In this document: positions 1 through 12,020 of the stretch, one piece after another | How positions within the stretch are numbered: the stretch's first letter is position 1 | How the letters are laid out: each line of letters starts with the position of its first letter | NCBI GenBank assembly: GCA_965115825.1 | Contig: OZ220464.1 | Span: 2,901,945-2,965,944 of the forward strand | Direction: 5' to 3' | DNA length: 64,000 nucleotides | Origin: Dehalococcoidia bacterium | GTDB lineage: Bacteria; Chloroflexota; Dehalococcoidia; Lucifugimonadales; UBA3495 | Notes under the pieces: model-generated | Database searches by the model: none | Told to the model about the DNA's origin: nothing | What the model saw: the letters and a program-made list of their open reading frames with translations, nothing else | Program-made: the position numbers and the translations under genes

Positions 1-2225
1 TGGGCATGGCTACTAATATGCCGCCTCACAACCTGGGCGAAATCTGCGACGCCGTTTGCCACGTCATCGACCATCCCAATACCGACGTTGACCAGCTCAT
101 GGCCATCGTCCCCGGCCCCGACTTCCCTACCTACGGACGCATCCGCGGCATCTCCGGCATCCGCGATATGTACGCCACCGGCCGCGGCCGTGTCATCATG
201 GAATCCGTTACCGAAATCGAAGAAACCCGCAACAACCGCCAGCGCATCATCGTCACCGAACTTCCCTTCCAGGTCAACAAAGCTTCCCTCGTCGAGAAAA
301 TCGCCTCCCTTGTCCGCGATAAAACCCTCGTCGGCATTACCGAAATCCGCGACGAATCCGACCGCCGCGGCATCCGCGTAGTCATCGAACTTTCCCGCAA
401 TGCCCAGGCCACCGTAATCCTCAACAACCTCTATAAGCGCACCGCCCTGCGCTCCTCCTTCAACGCCATCATGCTCGCCCTGGTGGATGGCCAGCCCCAG
501 GAACTTCCCCTCAAAGAACTCATCCGCAACTTCATCACCCACCGCGAAGAGGTCATCCGCCGGCGCACCGAATATCAGCTGGGCCGCGCCCGCGACCGCG
601 CCCACATCGTCGAGGGACTCCTCAAAGCCCTCGACGCCATCGACGCCATCATCGCAACCATCCGCAGCAGCCAAGACGTCGAAACCGCCCGCAACAACCT
701 CGTCCAGCAGTTCGACCTCACCGAAATTCAAGCCCAGGCCATCCTGGATATGCAGCTCCGCCGCCTCGCCGCCCTGGAGCGCCAGCGCCTGGATGAAGAG
801 TACAACGACCTGCTGGCAACCATTGCCCAGCTGGAAGACCTTTTGCAGAACCCCCAGAAAATCCGCAACGAAATCAAGCGCGAAACCCGCGAAGTCAAGC
901 GCAAGCATGCCAATGCCCGCCGCACCGAAATTATCCCTGAAGAACTGCAAGAACAGTCCATCGAACAGTTCATCGTTCAGGAAGACGTTGTAGTCACCCT
1001 CAGCCAGCGCGGCTACATCAAGCGCGTCCCCATCAGCACCTATCGCAACCAGCGACGCGGCGGCAAAGGCGTCCGCGGCGCCAACAATCGCGACGACGAC
1101 GCAGTAATGCAGATCGCCGTCGTCAACACCCACGACCAGCTCCTGTTCTTCACCAACAAGGGCCGCGTGTATCCCCTCAACGTGTACGAAACCCCCAGCG
1201 ACGCCGGCCGCACTGCGCGCGGTACGCTCCTGGTCAACCTTATCCCCCTGCAACCCGGCGAACAGGTGCAGACCATGCTCCCCGCCACCCGCGACGAGTA
1301 CAACCGTCTCTACGTCTTTGCCACCCGCAACGCGCGCGTCAACGCTTTGCGGCCCGGCCAGCTGCAAAACCTCCGCAAGTCCGGCCTCAACGCAATGAAA
1401 GTGCAGGATGGCGACGAAATGATCGCCGTCCGCCCCGTATCCGCCGACGCCTCAATCATTCTCGTTACCGAGCAGGGTCAGGCCCTCCTCTGCCCGGTCG
1501 CCAGCATCCCCGAGCGCAACCGCAACGCCTCCGGCGTAATCGGCATGAAAACAAAGCTCGGAGAGCAGACCGTCACCATGGACCTGGGCAGCGACCGGGT
1601 AGTGGCAATGGATGTGGTAAATGACCCCGAAAACGAGTTCCTCCTCGTGGTCAGCGAAAAAGGCTACGGCAAAGCCACCCCCCTCTACAACAGCAAAGGC
1701 GAAGCAGTCTATCGCGAGACCAACCGTGGCGGCTTGGGCGTCAGAACCTTCGCCGTTGACCAGAGCGACAAACCCACTGGCCCCGTGGTCGACGCCAAAG
1801 TCGTCAACTCCTCCGAAATGAACGAAGAAGAGGGCCACGAAGTCTTTATCATCTCCGCCCACGGCCAGGTGGTTCGCATCAACCTCGCCGAAGTCAAAGT
1901 CGTCAACACCCGGCAGACCAAGGGCGTCATCATCTGGCGCGAACGCGGCGGCGACGACTCCGTCGTATCCATCGCCTGCTTCCGCGCCAACGACTATAGC
2001 CAGGAAGACCCCACCCGCCAGAACGGCGCCGACCCTGCCGCCGCCGGTTCAGCCCTAGCCCAGGCCGAAGCCGTCGCCGCCGAAGCCGACAGCCAATACG
2101 ACGACACGGACGACGCTTCACCTATCCCGGCCGACTCTACCATCGCCGACCCCACGGACAACGATGATGGCGAAGACGATGACGCTCCCGACGCTGCGCT
2201 CAACGGCCAGGCCCCATTGCTCTAA
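1..2225 (+). CDS. gyrA: DNA gyrase subunit A, C-terminal ~740 aa (5' end outside window)
   Basis: ORF open to the window edge. GyrA-box QRRGGKG present (YRNQRRGGKGVRG), QAILDMQLRRL segment, repeated CTD blades, acidic D/E tail. Confidence 0.92.
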   Translation, partial: GMATNMPPHNLGEICDAVCHVIDHPNTDVDQLMAIVPGPDFPTYGRIRGISGIRDMYATGRGRVIMESVTEIEETRNNRQRIIVTELPFQVNKASLVEKIASLVRDKTLVGITEIRDESDRRGIRVVIELSRNAQATVILNNLYKRTALRSSFNAIMLALVDGQPQELPLKELIRNFITHREEVIRRRTEYQLGRARDRAHIVEGLLKALDAIDAIIATIRSSQDVETARNNLVQQFDLTEIQAQAILDMQLRRLAALERQRLDEEYNDLLATIAQLEDLLQNPQKIRNEIKRETREVKRKHANARRTEIIPEELQEQSIEQFIVQEDVVVTLSQRGYIKRVPISTYRNQRRGGKGVRGANNRDDDAVMQIAVVNTHDQLLFFTNKGRVYPLNVYETPSDAGRTARGTLLVNLIPLQPGEQVQTMLPATRDEYNRLYVFATRNARVNALRPGQLQNLRKSGLNAMKVQDGDEMIAVRPVSADASIILVTEQGQALLCPVASIPERNRNASGVIGMKTKLGEQTVTMDLGSDRVVAMDVVNDPENEFLLVVSEKGYGKATPLYNSKGEAVYRETNRGGLGVRTFAVDQSDKPTGPVVDAKVVNSSEMNEEEGHEVFIISAHGQVVRINLAEVKVVNTRQTKGVIIWRERGGDDSVVSIACFRANDYSQEDPTRQNGADPAAAGSALAQAEAVAAEADSQYDDTDDASPIPADSTIADPTDNDDGEDDDAPDAALNGQAPLL

Positions 2226-2231
2226 TCACAG

Positions 2232-2278
2232 GAAGGCAGCGTTGTCAAAGCCTCTGCTTTATGTACAACGCTGCCTTC
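2232..2278 (+). terminator. Stem-loop directly after the gyrA stop (candidate terminator)
   Basis: Perfect 14-bp arms gaaggcagcgttgt (2232-2245) / acaacgctgccttc (2265-2278). The 19-nt loop is long and the T-tail weak (ttctatt). Confidence 0.45.
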
Positions 2279-2368
2279 TATTGACATACAAACGTTCGCG
2301 GGGTATGATACCTGCAAAATCGCAGGCACCCAATGCCTCAAACCAATGGTAGCTTGGAGGGAGTTGAC

Positions 2369-3322
2369 ATGAGCGGCACACTGTATCATGGAGATTGCCG
2401 GGTGATATTCCAAGCGTTCGACCGGGAGAACCGGCGCGAAATCCCCGATAACAGCATAGACTTGGTGGCGATGGATCCTCCGTACTTCATTGACGGCATG
2501 GGGGATGACTGGAACCATAAGCGGCTTGCTGTTCGAAAAGCCAAAGGAGGCGTAGTTAAGGGCCTCCCTACCGGGATGAAGTACGATCGCCGCCAATCTA
2601 AACACCTCTATAAATTTTTCAAACCCGTCGCAGAGTTTTGCTACTCCGTGCTAAAGCCCGGAGCATTTATGTGTGTCTTTGCCCAAGGGAGGCTTTATCA
2701 TGCCGTGGCGATGGCTGCGGAGGAAGCAGGCTTCGAAGTCAAGGACATGATGTCGTGGCGTTATAACCGTCAACCGAAAGGGTTCTCGTTGCGTCATTTT
2801 GTCAAAAAGATGAGCCTGTCGGATAGCGAGAAGGACGATATCATATCAAAAATAGGTGACCGTCGAACTCCACAGCTGCGGCCGCAGTTTGATCCTATAC
2901 TTTTGGCTCAAAAACCTCGCGAGGGTAGTTTTGTCGACAATTACCTCAAATGGAACGTCGGAGTGATTAACCCCAAAGTGGGAGTCGATGGGCACTACCC
3001 TGGGACTGTGATTGATATTAAACCTGAGCCTAACCGCAACATCGACCACATGACTGTGAAGCCAGTGGCTCTTATGGAACGGCTGATTGACACGTTCACT
3101 ACTTCAGAAGACATTACACAGACGGTATTAGATCCGTTTGTTGGATCCGGCACTACCGCTGTGGCAGCCCACAAATTGAGGCGGCACTTCATCGGCATAG
3201 ACACTGAAATTGAATATGTCGATATAGCTCTCCGCCGTCTCAGGGCAATGGGCTGTAGCCCTAGAGTGGTCACTGAATATAGCGGCGTCCTTTTCGACCA
3301 CGTGATGCAGTCCGATCATTAA
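2369..3322 (+). CDS. DNA methyltransferase, beta-class (N6A/N4C family, PF01555-like)
   Basis: DPPY motif IV near the N-terminus (LVAMDPPYF) and SAM motif I near the C-terminus (LDPFVGSGTTAVAA). GGAGG lies 8 nt upstream of ATG 2369. The ORF is also open from ATG 2333. Confidence 0.85.
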   Translation: MSGTLYHGDCRVIFQAFDRENRREIPDNSIDLVAMDPPYFIDGMGDDWNHKRLAVRKAKGGVVKGLPTGMKYDRRQSKHLYKFFKPVAEFCYSVLKPGAFMCVFAQGRLYHAVAMAAEEAGFEVKDMMSWRYNRQPKGFSLRHFVKKMSLSDSEKDDIISKIGDRRTPQLRPQFDPILLAQKPREGSFVDNYLKWNVGVINPKVGVDGHYPGTVIDIKPEPNRNIDHMTVKPVALMERLIDTFTTSEDITQTVLDPFVGSGTTAVAAHKLRRHFIGIDTEIEYVDIALRRLRAMGCSPRVVTEYSGVLFDHVMQSDH

Positions 3323-3539
3323 CGACTTTCCCCTCCTCCTCCAATTTGTCCATTACTGCTGTAACGATGCTATCGTTGAGACGAGGGCCGTTGCCCGCTG
3401 CTTCAGCGCCCCGGTAAATCTGCAATGCTCTACTCATATCGGCGGGGCCAACACCGTTTGGTGATTCGTTTTTGAGAACCTCCATGATTGCTTCCTCCAA
3501 AAGGCGGATGGCATCCTGGGCTTTTTCAACTGGTGTCAT
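3270..3539 (-). CDS. Small winged-helix-like protein (possible R-M controller/regulator)
   Basis: 89-aa ORF with a strong SD (AGGAGG, 7 nt before ATG 3539). It is divergent from the nuclease gene and its 3' end overlaps the MTase 3' end by 53 nt. The helix-rich sequence with a basic tail suggests wHTH. Confidence 0.55.
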   Translation of the reverse strand: MTPVEKAQDAIRLLEEAIMEVLKNESPNGVGPADMSRALQIYRGAEAAGNGPRLNDSIVTAVMDKLEEEGKVVNDRTASRGRKGRRYIQ

Positions 3540-3564
3540 TTACAATCCTCCTGACTTGGAAAAG

Positions 3565-4308
3565 GTGAATATTGTGACAACCACACGACTTGGGATCGAC
3601 GGGCCGCACGTTTATATGTCCACCGATGAAATCAAAAGCCGTTACGATGAACTCACTAGCTTACATCAACAGCATCTCCGGCGATACGACGTAAGAATGC
3701 CGGCCGAAGGCTCGAACAAAGCTCTGCACCTCATATACCTCCACAAGCACGTTAGAAAGTTAGTTCACAAGGACACTGTATCGGCTTTTGTGCGTTCTGT
3801 CAAGCCCAATGCGGGCGCTGATCAGCAAGTGCGCCACTTAGCCGCGGATGGATGGAACGTGCTGAACCGAGGTAATGCTATCGATGAAAATGAGATTGTG
3901 CCACCCGGGTATCATATGCTCAGGGACGTGACAACCGTCAAGCCAGATTTTTTACATAGGCGCCTGCGTCGCGTTGGACGAGTAGCTGCTACCTCATTCG
4001 AGGAACTGAAAGCTGTCTATGATTTTCGCTGCGTTACGTGCGGCAGTAGAGAAGGTGGGCACCTTCCGCTAAACCCGGACGCTATCGTTGAGTTGCAGCA
4101 AGGTCATATGCACCCAAACAGACCGCTCACACTGGACAACACTATTCCGCAATGCCAATACTGCAATCAGACATACCAAGATAATTTTGTGTTTGACCAA
4201 AACGGCCGAGTGCAAGCTTTGTTCAACCCCAATTTCATTTTACGTTCTGAACAAGCGGTGCAAGAAGCGATTTTGCACTTGCTGAGGCAATCATTTCCGG
4301 ATGTCTGA
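3565..4308 (+). CDS. HNH (beta-beta-alpha-Me) type II restriction endonuclease candidate
   Basis: C-terminal CVTCGS...QQGHMHPN...CQYCNQ pattern (CxxC...H.H...CxxCN), adjacent to the MTase. Start uncertain: GTG 3565, GTG 3574 or ATG 3616. Confidence 0.6.
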   Translation: MNIVTTTRLGIDGPHVYMSTDEIKSRYDELTSLHQQHLRRYDVRMPAEGSNKALHLIYLHKHVRKLVHKDTVSAFVRSVKPNAGADQQVRHLAADGWNVLNRGNAIDENEIVPPGYHMLRDVTTVKPDFLHRRLRRVGRVAATSFEELKAVYDFRCVTCGSREGGHLPLNPDAIVELQQGHMHPNRPLTLDNTIPQCQYCNQTYQDNFVFDQNGRVQALFNPNFILRSEQAVQEAILHLLRQSFPDV

Positions 4309-4450
4309 TTTTGTGACGTCCAATATCCGATTTGCCAGAGTCACCGAGTTTTGAGTTGTTACAGCGCAGATTATACTATGAGCATCGGGACATGGTTTTA
4401 CTCATGCAATATTTGACGCAAATTAGCCTTCATGTTCCGGAACATTCACA

Positions 4451-5149
4451 ATGCTAGGACATACCTCCATGCAGCTCCTCATGGTTCACGGCTCCGGCCA
4501 GAACGAACTCACCTATCACTATCAAACCGCACATTTCCCCAACGCCGACGCTGTCAACCTCCCCGGCCACCCTCACGGCCAGCCCAAAGACAGCATCGCC
4601 GGCTACGCGGACTGGCTCCGCGAGTATGCCCTGGCCCAAAACTACCCGCCCTTCGTGTTGTTCGGTCACTCCATGGGTGGCGCCATCGCCTTGGACTACG
4701 CCCTGCGCTTCCCCCAGGACTTGGCCGGGCTGGTTCTCATCGGCGCTGGCGCCAGGCTGCGCGTCCACCCCGATTACCTCAATCGCTGCCTGGACGATGC
4801 CCAATGGCGCGCCGAGGCTCCGGCCTACTACGAAGCCATCAACCCCGAACTCGCCCCCCGGCTGGTCGCCCGCGCCCTCCAATCCGGCCCCTTGGTGGAG
4901 CGCAACGACCTCTCCTGCTGCGACCGGTTCGACGCGATGCAGCGCGTGCGCGAAATCGCCATCCCGTCGTTGGTCATTGTCGGCGCCGACGACGTAATGA
5001 CGCCGGTGCGCTACGCCGAATACCTGGGCCGGGAATTGCAGGACGCCCAGGTCGTGGTCGTCCCCAACTCCGGCCATTTCGTTACCCTGGAACAGCCCGC
5101 CGCTGTCAACGCTGCCATCGCCCGCTTCCTCAATCGGTTAGCCGGCTGA
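4451..5149 (+). CDS. Alpha/beta-fold hydrolase
   Basis: Nucleophile elbow GHSMGG, an HGSG-type N-terminal strand, and a C-terminal SGH motif. Confidence 0.8.
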   Translation: MLGHTSMQLLMVHGSGQNELTYHYQTAHFPNADAVNLPGHPHGQPKDSIAGYADWLREYALAQNYPPFVLFGHSMGGAIALDYALRFPQDLAGLVLIGAGARLRVHPDYLNRCLDDAQWRAEAPAYYEAINPELAPRLVARALQSGPLVERNDLSCCDRFDAMQRVREIAIPSLVIVGADDVMTPVRYAEYLGRELQDAQVVVVPNSGHFVTLEQPAAVNAAIARFLNRLAG

Positions 5150-5206
5150 TTGGCGGCGCCCATTGCTGGTATTATGTGGTCATCCGAGCCTACTCGCTTG
5201 ACCGCA

Positions 5207-7411
5207 ATGGCCACCATCCAATCCTACGCGCCCGACGCTCATCGGCTGGCCGATTCGCTGGCCGCCATCTACGCCGGCCGCTCCGACGCCGAGGGCCTGC
5301 CCGCCGCCCGCCGCATCTCCGCAACCGCAGCCCAACTGTCGGACTCCGCCCCGGCTGCCGACGCTGCAATAATCAACGTGGCGGCGCTTTTCCTCCTCTC
5401 CGGTCGGCCCGACGCTTCCCATCGCTCCCAGCTTTCCGCCGCCATCGTCGACGCTTGGCTGCGCGGCGCCGGCGCCCCTGAGCCTTTTGTCGCCGCCGTG
5501 CGCAGCGTTCTCCTGGACGCTTGGAACCCCGCTCCCAACGCCCACATCGCAAGGCTGCTGTGGCATTCCGCCCAACTGGACCTGGTCTGCGTAGAACGGC
5601 ACGCCCATTACTTGCAGGATACGCCCCCATCCGGACATTGCCGGGAGCAGTACCTGGCCGCCTACCGCCGCGATTGCCTCATGCCTGCCTTGACCCTCCG
5701 CCCGCGCTTGTCAATGCCGGCGGCGGTAGCAATCTACGATGCGCGGATGCCCCTGCTGTCCGCCTGGTTGGACCAACATCCGATGCCGCCGGTTCCCGCC
5801 GACTGGCGCCGCTTGGCCGAAGTGTCCACCATAGAGCAAGGCGTTCAGAGTCTGCTCGCCGGCGAAGACCCGGCGCAAGTCCGCGCCGCAATGCCCGCCC
5901 CCGGCCTACCCTACGCCGAATATCGGGCGCGCCAGCGCGCCATCATCGCCGGCAGCCACCACCGCATCCTGGAGTTGGCCCACGACCGTATCCAAGCCTC
6001 CCGCAACGTCGCCGCCGAAAAATACCTCGAAAGCGACACCATCCACAAACCCGCCGTCGAGGAAAACCTGTTCGCCAGCGCCCGACGCCGCGCCCGTCAG
6101 CTCGGCCTGTCTCCCGAAACCGCCGAAGACATCGCCCGCCTCCTCCTCTCCAACGCCCGCGAAGTGCAGGAACGCACCCTCAACGACATCGCCCAGCGCC
6201 TCAGCCGCCTCCACGGCCAAATCCTGGACGCCGATTCTCCCGAAACCAGCGCCGAAGAAGCCGACATCGCCACCCCTTCCCTAGTTGTGCGCACCGGCGA
6301 CCAGCCCCTGGCCCGCGAAAACGAACTCATCAAGGAACTTCGCGTTACCGGACTCAACGAAGCTTACCCGGAACAGCGTCGCCGCTTTGCCCAGTGGTTT
6401 GATCCTCCTCATCCTTACATACTCACCGGGCAGATTGTCGCCAGCCGCGACGCCGACTTGTTCCTGCAAGCCCTCACCGACGGCCATCCCTGCAAGGTCG
6501 TCGCTGCCATGCCCGCGCACGGCCCGATGCACTTGACCCATGGCGCTCTCGGCAGCCTGCTCACTTACTTCCAGTCACTGGGCGCCGCAATCATCCTCGC
6601 TTTCCGGGACGAGACCCATTCCCGCCCGGAGGCCCGCCGGAATATGCTCGACCGTCTGCTTACCCTGGCCGCCAATGGCCTCGACCTCCGCCGCGCCGAC
6701 GCTTACCTGCAACTCGACCGCCCCGCCATCACGACCGCCGCTTTTGAGCTGGGCCGCGTTACTCCCTTAAGTCTGCTCAACTCGGCCCTCGGCCTCCGCC
6801 TGAACAGCAGCGCCACCGATACCTTTCTCCCCCTCTTGCGCATCGCCGACATCCTCCATATCCAGCAGCCTGAATTCGGCGGCCCCTGCCGCACCCTGGT
6901 CATCGACGGCATCGGCGGCGACGTGTACGTCCGCATGGCCCGCAGCGTCGCCGACCGCTTTGGACTCCTCAAGCCCTCCGCCCTCTACCTCCGCGCCATG
7001 CGCAGCCTCGCCACCTACCACGACCCGACTACCGGCAGCGCCGTGGAAATTATGACCAACGCCGTCCCCCAGGGGCGCATCGCCTACGACGACCATCCTG
7101 ACGACATCCGCCGCCGCATCCGACGCGCCTACACCGGCGGACGTCGCACCTCCGCGGAGCAGCGCGCCAAGGGCGGCAACCCCGACCCCCGCGTTTGCAG
7201 CGTCTCCAGCCTCCACGCCTTCCACGCCACGCCCGAGCCCGACGCCTACGCCGAGCTGCAAAAACGCTGCCGCTCCGGAGACCTCCTCTGTGGCGAATGC
7301 AAAGCCTCCGCCGCCCACAACCTGCTAAAATACTTGCGGCGCAGCCGGCAAACCCGCGACGCCTTGCCCCAATCCGTCCAACTGCGCGCCCGCTCCCTCG
7401 CCGGCCTCTGA
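5207..7411 (+). CDS. Multidomain protein: unknown N-terminal region + AroQ chorismate-mutase-like segment + degenerate TrpRS-like C-terminal domain
   Basis: nt ~5912-6190 fits the CM_2 pattern (R..I..ILELAHDR...S..VAAEK....I..P..EE...A...GLSPE...I...L...S...Q). nt ~6412-7411 aligns by eye with the neighbouring TrpRS, but HLGH is HLTH and KMSKS is replaced by EIMTN. First ATG at 5207; the ORF is open from TTG 5150. Confidence 0.6.
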   Translation: MATIQSYAPDAHRLADSLAAIYAGRSDAEGLPAARRISATAAQLSDSAPAADAAIINVAALFLLSGRPDASHRSQLSAAIVDAWLRGAGAPEPFVAAVRSVLLDAWNPAPNAHIARLLWHSAQLDLVCVERHAHYLQDTPPSGHCREQYLAAYRRDCLMPALTLRPRLSMPAAVAIYDARMPLLSAWLDQHPMPPVPADWRRLAEVSTIEQGVQSLLAGEDPAQVRAAMPAPGLPYAEYRARQRAIIAGSHHRILELAHDRIQASRNVAAEKYLESDTIHKPAVEENLFASARRRARQLGLSPETAEDIARLLLSNAREVQERTLNDIAQRLSRLHGQILDADSPETSAEEADIATPSLVVRTGDQPLARENELIKELRVTGLNEAYPEQRRRFAQWFDPPHPYILTGQIVASRDADLFLQALTDGHPCKVVAAMPAHGPMHLTHGALGSLLTYFQSLGAAIILAFRDETHSRPEARRNMLDRLLTLAANGLDLRRADAYLQLDRPAITTAAFELGRVTPLSLLNSALGLRLNSSATDTFLPLLRIADILHIQQPEFGGPCRTLVIDGIGGDVYVRMARSVADRFGLLKPSALYLRAMRSLATYHDPTTGSAVEIMTNAVPQGRIAYDDHPDDIRRRIRRAYTGGRRTSAEQRAKGGNPDPRVCSVSSLHAFHATPEPDAYAELQKRCRSGDLLCGECKASAAHNLLKYLRRSRQTRDALPQSVQLRARSLAGL

Positions 7412-7473
7412 AGGCCCAACCTGCCGGCGAAGGCTGCCTGCTTGCCCCATCACCTACCCAGGAGACCACCGCC

Positions 7474-8490
7474 ATGTCAGACCTGCAACGCATCCTCACC
7501 GGGATGCGTCCCACCGGACAACTCCACCTCGGCCACTATCTGGGCGCCCTGGAAAACTGGACCCAAATGCAGCATGAATACGACTGCTTCTTCCTCATCG
7601 CCGATTACCAGGCCATGAGCGACCATCTCGACGACATCAGCCTCATCCGCCGCTCAGTATTAGATGTCGCCACCGACTGGCTCGCCGTCGGCCTAGACCC
7701 CGATAAGTCCGCCTTCGTCATTCAAAGCTACGTCCCCGAGCACGCCGAGCTCACCATGTACTTTTCCATGCTCACCCCCCTGAGCCAGCATCAGAAAAAC
7801 CCCACCCTCCGCGCCGAAACCGCGCAGCTCGCAGCCGAGCATCAATCCATAACCCTGGGCTTCTTCAACTACCCCATCAGCCAGGCCGCCGACATCCTTC
7901 TGCCCAAGGCCCACCTGGTTCCCGTCGGCCAGGACCAGGTTCCCCACATCGAATACACCCGCAACGTCGCCCGACGCTTCAACCGCCTCTACGGTGAAGT
8001 CTTCCCTCTCCCCCGCGCCCGCGTCGGTCGTGTTCCCCGCCTCGTTGGCACCGACGGCCAGGCCAAAATGAGCAAGAGCCTCAACAACACCATCTACCTC
8101 GCCGACGACCCGGAAACCGTCGCCAACCGCATCCGCCGCATGGTAACCGATGTCACCGGACAAAACCCCCGCCTCCGGGCCACCGACCCCGGCGTCGTGG
8201 ATCACAACCCCGCCTTCCTCTACCATGACGCATTCAACGACAACCCCGACGAAGTCGCCGAGCTCAAAGAACGTTACGCCGCTGGCTCAGTCAGCGACAG
8301 CGAAGTCAAAAAGCGTCTTACCCATGCCGTCAATCGCTTCCTGGAACCCATCCGCGAACGCCGCGCCTGGTACGAGCGGCATCCGGATTACGTCCGCGAC
8401 GTCCTCCTCGCCGGCACCCAGCGCGAACGCGACGTCGCCCAGCAAACCATGGCCGAAGTCCGCCAGGCCATGCAAGTAATTTACACTTGA
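7474..8490 (+). CDS. trpS: Tryptophan--tRNA ligase
   Basis: ILTGMRPTGQLHLGHYLGAL (HIGH-type) and KMSKS motifs. AGGAGA SD upstream of ATG 7474. Confidence 0.92.
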   Translation: MSDLQRILTGMRPTGQLHLGHYLGALENWTQMQHEYDCFFLIADYQAMSDHLDDISLIRRSVLDVATDWLAVGLDPDKSAFVIQSYVPEHAELTMYFSMLTPLSQHQKNPTLRAETAQLAAEHQSITLGFFNYPISQAADILLPKAHLVPVGQDQVPHIEYTRNVARRFNRLYGEVFPLPRARVGRVPRLVGTDGQAKMSKSLNNTIYLADDPETVANRIRRMVTDVTGQNPRLRATDPGVVDHNPAFLYHDAFNDNPDEVAELKERYAAGSVSDSEVKKRLTHAVNRFLEPIRERRAWYERHPDYVRDVLLAGTQRERDVAQQTMAEVRQAMQVIYT

Positions 8491-8655
8491 CGCCCCGCGC
8501 CCATAGCCGTCCATCACGCAACAAGCATCATCCCCCGCGCGCAAGCCTAATAGCAGCAGCCATCCCCACCGGCGTAGCCGTAACCGTCACCGACCCGCCA
8601 ACGCCGGCTAACCGGAAGAAAAGCCGACATATGCGCAATTTCCCCTCCCCATGGA

Positions 8656-11600
8656 ATGTACATTATGACCGCAGCACAGCCCAACGTAACGGGCTCTCCC
8701 CGCTGGGATTTAGCCCGCGGCATCGTCGCCCAGCTCCGCCAAATGCCCGCAGCCACCGCCGAAGCCGAAATCGAAGTTCGCTTGCACACAGTGTTGGGCT
8801 TTCTCTTCCCTACTCTCAAATATCCCGACCTCGCCACCCAGTACCCATCCGGCGACGGGCCCATCGACATCTACTGCCGCAACGTAGTCTTTGAAACCAA
8901 ACGCCAGGGCCGAAAAGACGACGCCCGCACTAAACCCGACGGCTCTACCGAAACCCCGGAAGAGCAAGCCGTCCGTTACTTGGACGCCCTTACCGTCCAC
9001 CCCACTACGTTTGATGATATCGCCGTCGGCTGGCGCGCCGCCATCACTGACGGCAAAGAATGGAGCTTTTACGATTACCGCCGCAACTCGCCTGATGTGG
9101 GAAATCTGACCCTGATTAACACGCTGCGTTTGAATACGCCCGATGATGACGAAACACTGCTGGCATACCTCTACGATTTCGTCAACCGCACCGCCAAACT
9201 GCTGCCGCCAACCAATAACGCAGAATGGGCCGAGCGACTGGTGCAGCCCTTTATCGCGCTGGCGGCAAGCTACGAAAGCACGTCGGAATACAGCGTTAAG
9301 CAACAGCTTTGGGAAGGCGTCCTGCGCGGCGCATTTATCATCCCGCCCGATGACCCCGACGCCAAACGCGACCTCTTCGCCCGCCACACCATGTTGGTAG
9401 TAATCGCCCGCGCCATCGCTGAAACCCTGCGCCCCCGGGGACTGCGGCAAACCGGACGGGAACCGCTGCATCACACCCTCACCCAAGGCTTCTCGGCATG
9501 GTTGCTTGATGCCGCCGGTAGCGACGGCGAAGCAGCCGTGGCCGCCTTGGTGGAAGAGGTCGATAATTACGCCTGGCTCGCAGCTAACCGGGATACCCTG
9601 AAAGACCTGTACCACATCGTCATCTCCCGCGATATTCGCCATGACTTCGGGGAATATTATACGCCTGACTGGTTGGCTCGGGCAGTCTGCGAAGAGGTTC
9701 TAGATGCGGACTGGCGTAAGGAAACCATCGAGATGGCTGTTGTCGGCCAATTGAATGGTCCCGCAGTTCTGGACCCGTCATGCGGCTCCGGCACATTCCT
9801 GTTTCACGCAACCCAATTACTGCTGGAAGATGCCCGCCAGCACCCCGAGCTGGTGCAAAGCCCTCACGCGCAAGTCGAAATTGTCAACGACTTGGTGGCC
9901 GGCATTGACCTGCACCCGGTCGCAGTAGAACTTTCCAAAGCAACTAAAATGTTGGCATTTGGCGAGCTTGCTGCGTACTACGCCAACATCGCCGACCACG
10001 ACACCGTATATCTGGGTGATAGCCTGCAATGGGAAACCCGCCGCAGTCAGCGAACCGGAGAGATGGGTGGAACTGTGGATATTCCCACCGTCGAGACGGA
10101 CGCGCCCATCCGATTGCCCAACACTATTTTGGGACTGGAACGGTTCCCTCAATTGTTGGCGCAGATATTTGGCCACGCCAATCGCCCGGAAACCCCGGAT
10201 AGCGAATCCAATCTACTGGCGCTGTTGAGCTTAACAAGCCAGTCTGACCAAGAAGCGGCTGTCGAACTCTATCGGCGTATTCGCCAGTACATTGCCAGCG
10301 GCCGCAACAATGTATGGCAGTGGTACGTTGCCAATTTGGTGCAGCCCCTGCGTCTGTCCGAATCGCCGGTTTCACGCTTGGTGGGCAACCCCCCCTGGGT
10401 CGTGTACAACGCAATGTCCAACGAAAGACAGGAGGCTTTTCGGCGTCACGCCATTGACCGCCGCCTCTGGGCCGGAGCTCACTTGGCTACACAGAACGAT
10501 CTGGCGGCCACCTTTGTCGCTACCTGCGTTGATTACTACCTGCAACCGGGTTGCAAATTCGCCTTCGTGCAGCCTTACGCTGCTTTACAAGCGCGTCACT
10601 GGGAACCTTTCCGCTCCGGAGAATGGAGCTTGCCTCCCGAGGCCGGACGCTACCGTACATTAGCAGACCTAAGCTTGGAAGCGTGGGATTTACTCTCCAT
10701 CAACGCCCCACCGTTCCCTCAGGCCAATTCCTCGGTAATCTACGGAACCAAGATCGACGCTACTAATCCCACAACGCCTACACAGCCAGTACCGTTAGGT
10801 AACATTTGGGTTGCCGCCACCACTGAGTCCGTAAATACTCGTATGACATGGGAGGAGGTGAAACCTCTCGTGCAATGGAGCCGCCGTCGGCAATGGCTCA
10901 CCGCGCCCAGCCCTCTTTACTCCACGGCTTTTCGTACTGGAGCGACTCTATTCCCCCAATCGTTGGTTCTTTTCGAGCGCGTCCAATCCCGCGCTCGCGG
11001 CATAGTCTATTTTCACACCAATCAAGGCCGTGGAGCGTATCGGGACACCGACCGCGAGGGCGCAGTCGAGGAGCAGTTTGTTAAGCCCGTTTTGTTTTCT
11101 CAGCTGCTGTTGCCCTTCGGTACGACAGGGAGGTATTACCTCGTCGCTCCATTTACAAAAGATGGGACCGGCCTAATTGACGATTTGCCACCGGGCGCCG
11201 ACGCAGAGAGGTTTCGTCAATACTGGAACGCGGCAAATCAGGAGTATATTGACCGCAAGGGCGCAAGGTCGCCGCTCAATCTAACCGCCCGACTAGACCG
11301 CGGACGCGGCCTCTCATCGCAACTTAATCTACGTAGCGACTCCAAGATAGTGTACAACGGTATCGGAAATTACATTAATGCTTCCGTTGTACCAAGCTCT
11401 GACATAGTCAATCACAATCAGTACTGGTTCGCCCCTGCGGATGCTGACACGAACCACTATTTAGCTGCCATACTGAACGCCAGCTGCTTGTTGCACTTCT
11501 TTCAAGAGGCTTGTCAGCCAACAGATAGAACTTTCATGCTTCTCCCCGTCCAAAACCTCCCCATCCCGGCCTTCAACCACCGAATCCCCCATCATCGCAA

Positions 11601-11775
11601 CCTCACCGCCCAATCCCAACTCGCCCACCGGCGCGTCGCCGCCCTGGTTGCCGAACGTCAAGCCGCCAACCGCCGCATCAACCGCAACGACGTCCTGCAA
11701 GACCACGTCATGCAGCCCATCTTTGCCAGCATCGACCAGTCCGTCCGCGCCATACTCCCCAACTTCTGCTCATAA
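8656..11775 (+). CDS. Single-polypeptide type IIG/IIL-like restriction-modification enzyme (PD-ExK nuclease + gamma-class N6A MTase + large C-terminal region)
   Basis: N-terminal D-X8-E-X-K (PIDIYCRNVVFETKRQG), YYTPDWLA, SAM motif VLDPSCGSGTFLFHA, catalytic LVGNPPWVVYN. No separate R or S gene nearby. Confidence 0.7.
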   Translation: MYIMTAAQPNVTGSPRWDLARGIVAQLRQMPAATAEAEIEVRLHTVLGFLFPTLKYPDLATQYPSGDGPIDIYCRNVVFETKRQGRKDDARTKPDGSTETPEEQAVRYLDALTVHPTTFDDIAVGWRAAITDGKEWSFYDYRRNSPDVGNLTLINTLRLNTPDDDETLLAYLYDFVNRTAKLLPPTNNAEWAERLVQPFIALAASYESTSEYSVKQQLWEGVLRGAFIIPPDDPDAKRDLFARHTMLVVIARAIAETLRPRGLRQTGREPLHHTLTQGFSAWLLDAAGSDGEAAVAALVEEVDNYAWLAANRDTLKDLYHIVISRDIRHDFGEYYTPDWLARAVCEEVLDADWRKETIEMAVVGQLNGPAVLDPSCGSGTFLFHATQLLLEDARQHPELVQSPHAQVEIVNDLVAGIDLHPVAVELSKATKMLAFGELAAYYANIADHDTVYLGDSLQWETRRSQRTGEMGGTVDIPTVETDAPIRLPNTILGLERFPQLLAQIFGHANRPETPDSESNLLALLSLTSQSDQEAAVELYRRIRQYIASGRNNVWQWYVANLVQPLRLSESPVSRLVGNPPWVVYNAMSNERQEAFRRHAIDRRLWAGAHLATQNDLAATFVATCVDYYLQPGCKFAFVQPYAALQARHWEPFRSGEWSLPPEAGRYRTLADLSLEAWDLLSINAPPFPQANSSVIYGTKIDATNPTTPTQPVPLGNIWVAATTESVNTRMTWEEVKPLVQWSRRRQWLTAPSPLYSTAFRTGATLFPQSLVLFERVQSRARGIVYFHTNQGRGAYRDTDREGAVEEQFVKPVLFSQLLLPFGTTGRYYLVAPFTKDGTGLIDDLPPGADAERFRQYWNAANQEYIDRKGARSPLNLTARLDRGRGLSSQLNLRSDSKIVYNGIGNYINASVVPSSDIVNHNQYWFAPADADTNHYLAAILNASCLLHFFQEACQPTDRTFMLLPVQNLPIPAFNHRIPHHRNLTAQSQLAHRRVAALVAERQAANRRINRNDVLQDHVMQPIFASIDQSVRAILPNFCS

Positions 11776-12020
11776 GCCACAACCCACCCACACCGCCATT
11801 CCGCCAAAACCCGCAACCCGCGGCGCAACCCCCATCCTGAAAATCCTAAAATCCCGTAAATCCTGATTCTGACAAATTGATGACATCCAACGCTTGCGAA
11901 ACCGTACGCCAGTACTTTACCCTATCCCCGTCAGGCTCATCCGCCGGCCCCGCGCGAACCGTCGGATAACCGTCCCTGGCCAGGACACCGCCCGACACCA
12001 CAACTGAATAGGAGTCTCAC

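Follow-up and report, generated by a model that had tools for sequence, protein, structure and literature searches.

The 64,000-nucleotide window analyzed here (contig OZ220464.1, positions 2,901,945 to 2,965,944, from a Dehalococcoidia bacterium) carries, directly upstream of an ordinary tryptophanyl-tRNA synthetase gene (trpS), an open reading frame (ORF) in which a chorismate mutase (CM) domain of the AroQ type is joined to a degenerate tryptophanyl-tRNA synthetase (TrpRS)-like body. The gene order is gyrA, a low-GC methylase island, an α/β-hydrolase gene (4451-5149), the fusion gene, trpS, an MmeI-like enzyme, and an S9 peptidase, a neighborhood that supplies no further metabolic clue. The fusion ORF extends on the forward strand from an ATG at 5207 to a TGA at 7409-7411, i.e., 734 codons in one uninterrupted frame. 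A longer version starting at TTG 5150 is not supported, the N-termini across the family reading M-[AT]-T-x-Q-[ST]-Y. A split into two genes or a frameshift can be ruled out, all relatives having the ORF in one piece; the fusion is a genuine conserved protein family encoded by a single gene and no artifact, as a preliminary description of this DNA had assumed. Both halves proposed in that description are found above the Pfam gathering scores: CM_2 matches aa 252-322 (E = 4e-8, 33.7 bits, gathering score 27) and tRNA-synt_1b matches aa 431-709 (E = 3e-7, 30.5 bits, gathering score 21.1).

More than 120 clusters of full-length homologs, at 66-78% identity and with unchanged architecture, came out of the protein search; those that have a name are called "hypothetical protein [Chloroflexi bacterium]" or, by JGI, "tryptophanyl-tRNA synthetase". 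A scan with one genome per GTDB species located 62 loci, all in Dehalococcoidia, SAR202, or Chloroflexota metagenome-assembled genomes, and an origin in sponge-associated samples is suggested by some of the isolate names, such as IRC4, RHO3, and SB0666. HMMER over 1.84 billion cluster representatives gave 299 matches in total at E <= 1e-3, which comprise the close family, a Chloroflexota clade at 52% identity (P0122, P0124) together with P0132, short fusions, and ordinary archaeal-type TrpRSs. The N-terminal domain is carried by P0122, P0124, and P0132; the shorter fusions P0126 (41% identity), P0127 (35%), P0131, P0152, and P0171 do not have it. A profile search of a word-indexed protein database for remoter fusions returned P0127 and ordinary TrpRSs and nothing else, and the metagenome contig scan returned one P0126-like locus, which is incomplete. 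In the open-access literature, we found no description of a fusion of CM to TrpRS or another aminoacyl-tRNA synthetase (aaRS), nor of a SAR202 CM. The family carries no name in current annotation, its NCBI label being "hypothetical protein", and the JGI label would inflate TrpRS gene counts in SAR202 and sponge-symbiont genomes. Another match of the HMMER search, P0145 (588 aa), is a different and unusual TrpRS fusion: it begins with a B3/4 domain of the PheRS-beta type (PF03483) and continues as an archaeal-type TrpRS that matches tRNA-synt_1b strongly.

A profile of the family CM segment aligns without gaps to residues 9-102 of the E. coli CM (EcCM, 1ecm) and matches the PDB CMs 5ts9, 6cnz, and 1ecm at E-values of 5e-7 to 4e-6. 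Residues R244, R261, K272, E285, and Q321 correspond to R11, R28, K39, E52, and Q88 of EcCM, and all five are invariant in the 63 species-level sequences from which the conservation counts in this text are taken. R244, R261, E285, and Q321 are present in every fusion found, down to 23-40% identity, and the most distant ones (P0131, P0152, P0171) retain the canonical R-E / DPxRE. With its substrate-binding and catalytic residues intact, this CM domain looks functional. The AlphaFold2 (AF2) monomer shows three helices in this region (236-275, 282-298, 303-341; pLDDT 25-50). Measured against the window sequence, identity is 90% for the CM domain, 87% for the linker and N-terminal extension, 69% for the Rossmann core, 74% for the anticodon domain, and 54% for the N-terminal domain. 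The CM domain and the linker are the best conserved block, on par with the adjoining TrpS and GyrA (80-92%).

The TrpRS-like body contains both the Rossmann catalytic fold and the helical anticodon-binding domain of a class Ic TrpRS. Its closest solved structures by phmmer are the enzymes of A. pernix (3a04, E = 7e-31) and P. horikoshii (3jxe); Foldseek superimposes the AF2 model on 3a04 (TMt 0.79, E = 4e-17) and also matches human, yeast, and archaeal TrpRS at E-values of 1e-12 to 1e-17. The top NCBIfam matches are the archaeal/eukaryote-type TrpRS models PRK12285.1-2 (aa 401-720, E = 1.8e-46, 158.8 bits against a cut-off of 451). The bacterial-type model TIGR00233 gives 85 bits with the fusion protein, under its cut-off of 176.75, and 299 bits with the neighboring trpS product. 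The linker region aligns with the archaeal TrpRS N-terminal segment "dpWg..dY.rLi.eFGi". We also observe a Cys motif, C664-x23-C688-x6-C695-x2-C698, in 63/63 species, which aligns with the Cys residues of archaeal enzymes. In T. maritima TrpRS, the [4Fe-4S]-binding motif C-x(21-24)-C-x6-C-x2-C adjoins the anticodon pocket and C34 (PMC2954223). The body is of the archaeal/eukaryote type with a Cys4 Fe-S motif, and is a xenolog rather than a local paralog of trpS.

A tandem duplication of the neighboring trpS is rejected, as it is not in keeping with the identities, which are 26% to the neighboring TrpS (BLASTP, E = 1e-8) and 33% to a Hadesarchaea TrpRS (E = 1e-50), nor with the different NCBIfam subfamilies of the two proteins. 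The block-by-block pairing with TrpRS proposed in the preliminary description stands for the most part in BLASTP, with GPMHLTH/GQLHLGH, LRIADIL/SQAADIL, the ARSVADRF/ARRFN region, and EIMTN/KMSKS all aligned; the ILTGQ pairing does not, as ILTGMRPTG of the neighbor aligns with KVVAAMPAHG (aa 430-439) and not with YILTGQ (aa 404-408).

The synthetase motifs of this body are largely lost. The Lys of the KMSKS loop is found in 0/63 sequences, the loop reading (E/D)(V/I)MTN or similar (EIMTN in the window protein), and the GxDQ dyad is likewise found in 0/63, its place being taken by GIGGD (the window protein), GLGGD, or GLERD. The fourth-position His of HIGH survives in 44/63, with Q, N, R, D, Y, or E in the other 19; the change from HLGH to HLTH holds for the window protein and is peculiar to it, HLGH being the majority form of the family (41/63). 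The contacts of P. horikoshii TrpRS with TrpAMP, including the role of D216 in the AIDQ motif, which binds the ribose and the α-amino group, have been described (PMC2831299). We mapped these ligand residues onto the fusion through the phmmer alignment: Y77 is replaced by V432, Q111 by A465, Q198 by R545, and D216 by G570, and E116 and K117 fall inside a deletion. The only Trp-contact side chain left is the Asp of the ADIL motif, D548 (57/63), which is the counterpart of bacterial D132, the ligand of the indole NH. The former synthetase cleft is well conserved inside the clade, though with novel residues (R545, GIGGD). Free-Trp sensing through the canonical pocket is weakened as a candidate function, the Trp ligands being gone.

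The opposite is seen on the anticodon side. T643-G644-G645-R646 and K699 are each present in 63/63 sequences, and T643-G644-G645, K699, and the Cys residues are also invariant across fusions at 23-40% identity. In human TrpRS, S378, G380, R381, and the universally conserved K431 contact the anticodon bases C34/C35 (PMC1538984), and the equivalent residues in the fusion are T643, G645, R646, and K699. The body has lost the residues for ATP, the adenylate, and the amino-acid backbone, whereas TGGR, K699, and the four Cys are kept in all 63 sequences; it is therefore predicted to have lost amino-acid activation, and the surface for the CCA anticodon of tRNA-Trp appears to be under strict selection, every residue known to read it being retained. 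The doubt already cast on aminoacylation is thus borne out. The comparison of the AF2 model with TrpRS that had been called for confirms the fold; the earlier term "Trp-recognising scaffold" fits poorly, as the Trp contacts are replaced or deleted except for the ADIL Asp, and it is the anticodon surface that is strictly kept. All told, that description was right in its outline and wrong on the origin of the body and on Trp recognition.

The first ~230 aa, previously left unassigned, can now be given a putative fold. The N-terminal ~200 aa are all-helical (AF2 pLDDT 86) and have no Pfam match. In Foldseek, the top 14 matches all belong to the HD superfamily, albeit weakly (E-values of 2e-3 to 4e-2, TM 0.45-0.71), the nearest structures being the HD hydrolases 3dto, 3djb, and YpgQ 5dqw (E ~2e-3, TM 0.5-0.7); the HD domain of bacterial GlyRS beta ranks lower, and there is also a likeness to the HD domain of a tRNA-processing enzyme complex (3wfq). 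No His-then-Asp column pair occurs within aa 1-232 over the 63 sequences, the likely site being H/L63-L64, and an active HD phosphohydrolase is ruled out by the missing dyad. This domain, which is confined to Chloroflexota clades and is the least conserved module, is on the strength of the model a degenerate HD-like domain.

The fusions seem to form an evolutionary series from a near-intact TrpRS fusion to a dead form, which we infer from the motifs of extant sequences. The deep-branching P0127 and P0126 retain HLGH, G-x-D-(Q/H)-D, and (K/R)MSS, and the Chloroflexota clades show a graded decay from DQ to ER to GG and from KMSSS to VMTAA to VMTN. An archaeal Fe-S-type TrpRS would first have gained an N-terminal AroQ domain. 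The fusion would then have moved into bacteria that already had a bacterial-type TrpRS and a G73 tRNA-Trp, where the adenylation site decayed stepwise; an HD-like domain would have been added, and the CM site and the anticodon surface would have stayed constant throughout.

The genomic context links the fusion to tryptophan and its tRNA. In 61/62 genomes, trpS lies directly downstream of the fusion, including those of the 52% clade, which have different genes in place of the upstream gyrA and hydrolase. The lone exception, L048, has no trpS within 8 kb downstream and still has the α/β-hydrolase upstream. The spacers between fusion and trpS are not conserved (2-900 nt); those of 2-24 nt are operonic, and those of ~400 nt occur where a small membrane ORF intervenes. 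This conserved ORF (53-58 aa) encodes MKEFFLNHICTTPPYTVASCEYQY and then a hydrophobic helix and a basic tail; it occurs in SAR202 species at L001 (12226-12393) and ~20 other loci (e.g., L011, L015, L019, L023, L027), and is missing from the window. Rfam matched no T-box, other leader RNA, or tRNA-like operator, either in the spacer before trpS or farther upstream, and signals for promoters or terminators at the locus do not rise above chance. As to transcripts, the locus appears, as assembled contigs, in only three runs of undetermined library type, and a query restricted to RNA returned two of those, none labelled RNA.

Other lineages show further genes of this kind. P0283, in the P0126 cluster, has the order fusion-trpB-trpA-trpS, and P0132 has fusion-trpS with tRNA-Trp ~2 kb off. 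P0288, of the P0122 type, has Trp 2,3-dioxygenase-fusion-methyltransferase-trpS-tRNA-Trp. In P0152, the fusion comes after a tRNA-Trp gene whose identity elements (G1:C72, A73) are archaeal, and its other neighbors are a chorismate-lyase-like gene and two additional TrpRS-like genes of the archaeal type. P0127 has as neighbors a chorismate-lyase-like gene and a PF02621 (MqnA-type) gene, and in P0171 an ACT-domain gene overlaps the stop codon of the fusion. Genomes usually carry one tRNA-Trp gene, and to meet it within a few kb of the fusion in three out of six independent lineages goes far beyond what chance would produce. No tRNA gene was found in the window, and Trp dioxygenase, trpBA, and chorismate-lyase-like neighbors do not recur in the SAR202 loci or the window, except for a trpA homolog in L053. 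Two of the outlying loci have features of their own. At L077, the tryptophan 2,3-dioxygenase gene (5332-6447) directly upstream of a P0122-type fusion is seen in no other locus and not in the window. L074 is a 7.7-kb AT-rich contig, presumably archaeal (tRNA-Trp G1:C72/A73), with three TrpRS-family genes including a CM fusion; the other two, 3891-5009(-) and 6063-7526(-), encode a 372-aa archaeal-type TrpRS and a divergent 487-aa one with an N-terminal extension of ~100 aa, and the contig also holds the tRNA-Trp and a chorismate-lyase-like gene.

We propose, with a rough probability of 0.38, that the fusion is a chorismate mutase coupled to a dead, tRNA-Trp-binding pseudo-synthetase, and that occupancy by tRNA-Trp gates the CM. 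A sensor or regulator, already considered in the preliminary description, would in our analysis still be the best reading of the fusion. AroQ CMs and TrpRSs are both obligate dimers, so that the fusion protein is probably a homodimer. Its CM domain would turn chorismate into prephenate at the branch point between Trp and Phe/Tyr, and the dead synthetase would serve as a built-in receptor for tRNA-Trp, possibly also for an indole ligand through the ADIL Asp. In real archaeal and eukaryotic TrpRS, the N-terminal extension closes over the active site; in the fusion, occupancy would be relayed to the CM active sites through the near-invariant linker and this extension. CM flux would then track how the cell stands for Trp and tRNA-Trp, with charged tRNA-Trp, uncharged tRNA-Trp, or Trp itself as candidate ligands and with regulation in either direction.

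Several points weigh against this proposal. Three active-site residues of EcCM, D48, R51, and S84, are replaced by K281, V284, and A317 in the window protein, and CM activity could be low or altered. The AF2 confidence for the CM domain and the linker is low (pLDDT 25-50, monomer), so that the coupling between domains is purely inferential. Sensing of free Trp is doubtful, the Trp pocket being largely remodeled, and the conserved residues seem to support binding of the anticodon alone, and no sensing of the acceptor end. A bacterial-type tRNA-Trp (G73, A1:U72) would face an archaeal-type body. Finally, a Phe/Tyr branch-point enzyme has no obvious need to be co-transcribed with trpS, and a function centered on tRNA-Trp fits at least equally well.

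In the closest competitor, the flow of information is reversed: the CM-like domain would sense chorismate or prephenate, and the output would act on tRNA-Trp, on TrpRS function, or on the expression of trpS or trp genes, in step with how much aromatic precursor is available, the pseudo-synthetase binding, sequestering, or handing over tRNA-Trp or an mRNA mimic of its anticodon arm. The strict co-location and probable co-transcription with trpS are better explained in this way than by a gated CM, and the tRNA-Trp genes nearby in three lineages, the anticodon contacts that stay invariant while catalytic residues decay, and the resemblance of the N-terminal fold to the GlyRS beta HD domain and to 3wfq are all consistent with it. 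Nevertheless, it is the full CM catalytic set that is invariant, beyond the residues needed for binding, which a gated CM explains better; moreover, the region between fusion and trpS shows no conserved RNA structure and no tRNA-like element (spacers of 2-900 nt, no Rfam match), and no DNA- or RNA-binding regulatory domain was detected. We regard reversed flow as possible, though on the unlikely side.

It is also conceivable that the protein is a plain constitutive CM, in which the TrpRS-like and HD-like parts are a leftover scaffold for dimerization or stability, as might be expected from the CM being the best conserved module and from the decaying ATP-site motifs. A mere scaffold would need no invariant anticodon residues or Cys, which makes this role unlikely: all 63 sequences have the same anticodon contacts, K699, and four Cys, and of these T643-G645, K699, and the Cys persist even at 23% identity. 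The linkage to trpS, tRNA-Trp, and trpBA also recurs in unrelated genomic backgrounds. On balance, a plain CM is quite improbable.

Slightly less probable again is a new catalysis on tRNA-Trp or with Trp-tRNA-Trp, i.e., a prephenate-dependent modification of the anticodon or a tRNA-dependent transfer. Here, the Cys4 site adjoining the C34 pocket sits in one protein with a prephenate-making domain, the cleft is conserved with new residues (R545, GIGGD), and precedents exist: TrhP makes ho5U34 in a prephenate-dependent manner (PMC6599085), RlhA makes ho5C2501, an iron-dependent formation and a prephenate-dependent RNA hydroxylation (PMC5727448), and prephenate is the oxygen donor in anaerobic ubiquinone synthesis (PMC10990095). 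In its specific form, in which the CM would make prephenate on site and the Cys4 Fe-S site by C34 would use it to modify tRNA-Trp, the idea is a long shot. The source of the Cys4 motif is the ordinary TrpRS of the archaeal/Thermotoga type, itself a plain synthetase, Pfam and NCBIfam show no likeness to U32 or other modification enzymes, and the proposal is wholly speculative. A metabolic enzyme, the CM, gated directly by a specific tRNA would be a less exotic and still novel version.

A second active TrpRS with extra domains, for example an auxiliary enzyme that resists stress or inhibitors in the manner of TrpRS II of D. radiodurans or the indolmycin-resistant TrpRSs, can practically be dismissed, despite the near-canonical HIGH, GxDQ, and KMSS of the distant P0127 and P0126 and the JGI name of some members, because the clade is without the KMSKS Lys, the DQ dyad, and the ligands of the Trp α-amino and carboxylate groups, scores far under all NCBIfam TrpRS cut-offs (159 vs 451 bits), and is always accompanied by an intact trpS.

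The features of the fusion gene and of the adjoining trpS are collected in Table 1.

Table 1 Positions of the fusion gene, its domains and motifs, and trpS within the window.
Feature	Residues (aa)	Position	Strand	Basis or remark
Whole ORF: HD-like domain, AroQ CM, linker, pseudo-TrpRS		5207..7411	+	same architecture in >120 clusters
Putative N-terminal all-α degenerate HD-like domain	1-200	5207..5806	+	AF2, Foldseek
AroQ-type CM domain	235-335	5909..6211	+	Pfam CM_2, gap-free 1ecm alignment
Linker and archaeal/eukaryote-type TrpRS N-terminal extension	336-400	6212..6406	+	87% identity
Pseudo-TrpRS Rossmann-fold core	401-625	6407..7081	+	Foldseek and phmmer to 3a04
HIGH remnant HLTH		6530..6541	+	
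GIGGD replacing G-x-D-Q-D (AIDQ motif)		6908..6922	+	
EIMTN replacing KMSKS/KMSSS		7046..7060	+	preceded by a ~10-residue family-specific insertion (aa 601-613)
Anticodon-binding helical domain	626-734	7082..7408	+	TGGR, K699, four Cys 63/63
YTGGR		7130-7144	+	
Cys664 codon	664	7196-7198	+	
Cys688 codon	688	7268-7270	+	
CGECK, with Lys699 after the last Cys		7289-7303	+	
62-nt spacer from fusion to trpS		7412..7473	+	GGAG ribosome-binding site
trpS, bacterial-type		7474..8490	+	TIGR00233; HLGH and KMSKS intact

The surroundings of the fusion-trpS pair in the window show some further features. Between gyrA and the α/β-hydrolase gene, a low-GC island (2333-4308; ~0.49-0.55 vs 0.60-0.68 in the flanks) encodes an N6/N4 DNA methylase (2333-3322) and a 278-aa protein with no Pfam match (3472-4308), together with a small ORF in antisense orientation (3270-3539). 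Relatives lack the island at the syntenic loci and have gyrA next to the hydrolase; it is probably an inserted restriction-modification cassette. Right after trpS, an ORF of 1039 aa (8656-11775) with a weak match to MmeI-type methyltransferases is likely a fused type IIL/IIG restriction-modification enzyme; it looks like a second insertion flanking the pair, since relatives carry thiolase/ChsH2-like genes at this position. Over 1-12000 of the + strand, the GC skew is persistently and strongly negative (to -0.30) across gyrA, the fusion, and trpS, whose genes lie on the + strand.

If the proposed gating is true, the fusion would be a bacterial aaRS-derived tRNA receptor hard-wired to a metabolic branch-point enzyme, and tRNA-Trp status would be signaled to aromatic flux without riboswitch, TRAP, or stringent factor. 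The graded natural series from near-intact to fully dead CM-TrpRS fusions would also trace the path from synthetase to sensor.

Among known systems, the nearest parallel is HisZ, a HisRS paralog that is the regulatory subunit of the ATP-phosphoribosyltransferase HisG. Like HisZ, the fusion is an aaRS paralog without aminoacylation motifs, here fused to a CM domain, and in both a non-aminoacylating synthetase would control the biosynthesis of its cognate or, for the fusion, a related amino acid. HisZ is of class II, is a separate subunit, is without an anticodon-binding domain, and binds histidine, whereas the fusion is of class Ic, is covalently joined to its enzyme, has kept its anticodon residues, and has lost its amino-acid ligands. 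The HisRS-like domain of GCN2, a sensor of uncharged tRNA, is similar in that a dead synthetase domain binds tRNA and controls a fused catalytic domain; GCN2, however, is eukaryotic, has a kinase output, and is not specific for a single tRNA. The Trp-activated CMs (yeast Aro7, plant CM1) and the E. coli P- and T-proteins (CM with prephenate dehydratase or prephenate dehydrogenase and ACT) share the AroQ fold and a branch-point CM under the control of aromatic end products, but they sense free amino acids by an allosteric site or an ACT domain and have no module that resembles an aaRS or binds tRNA. In the regulatory CM domains of 3-deoxy-D-arabino-heptulosonate 7-phosphate (DAHP) synthases (B. 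subtilis AroA(Q), Geobacillus/Listeria DAH7PS), an AroQ domain fused to another protein also binds chorismate or prephenate and relays an allosteric signal; the partner there is DAHP synthase, and the PDB entries 5j6f and 5gmu match the CM of the fusion weakly (E-values of 0.3-0.4).

On the synthetase side, the Fe-S TrpRS subgroup (T. maritima 2g36, A. pernix 3a04 type) has in common with the fusion the fold, the Cys4 motif, TGGR, and the universal Lys. Its members are genuine synthetases with HIGH, GxDQ, and KMSKS, whereas the fusion is without these and has the CM and HD-like domains in addition. D. radiodurans TrpRS II and antibiotic-resistant second TrpRSs resemble the fusion in being a second TrpRS-family gene beside a housekeeping trpS; they differ in being bacterial-type, catalytically active, and without CM or HD-like domains. 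The theme of the pseudo-synthetase as a regulator is thus known, and what appears to be new here is the chorismate mutase partner, together with unusually clear indications in the conserved residues that binding of the tRNA-Trp anticodon has been retained.

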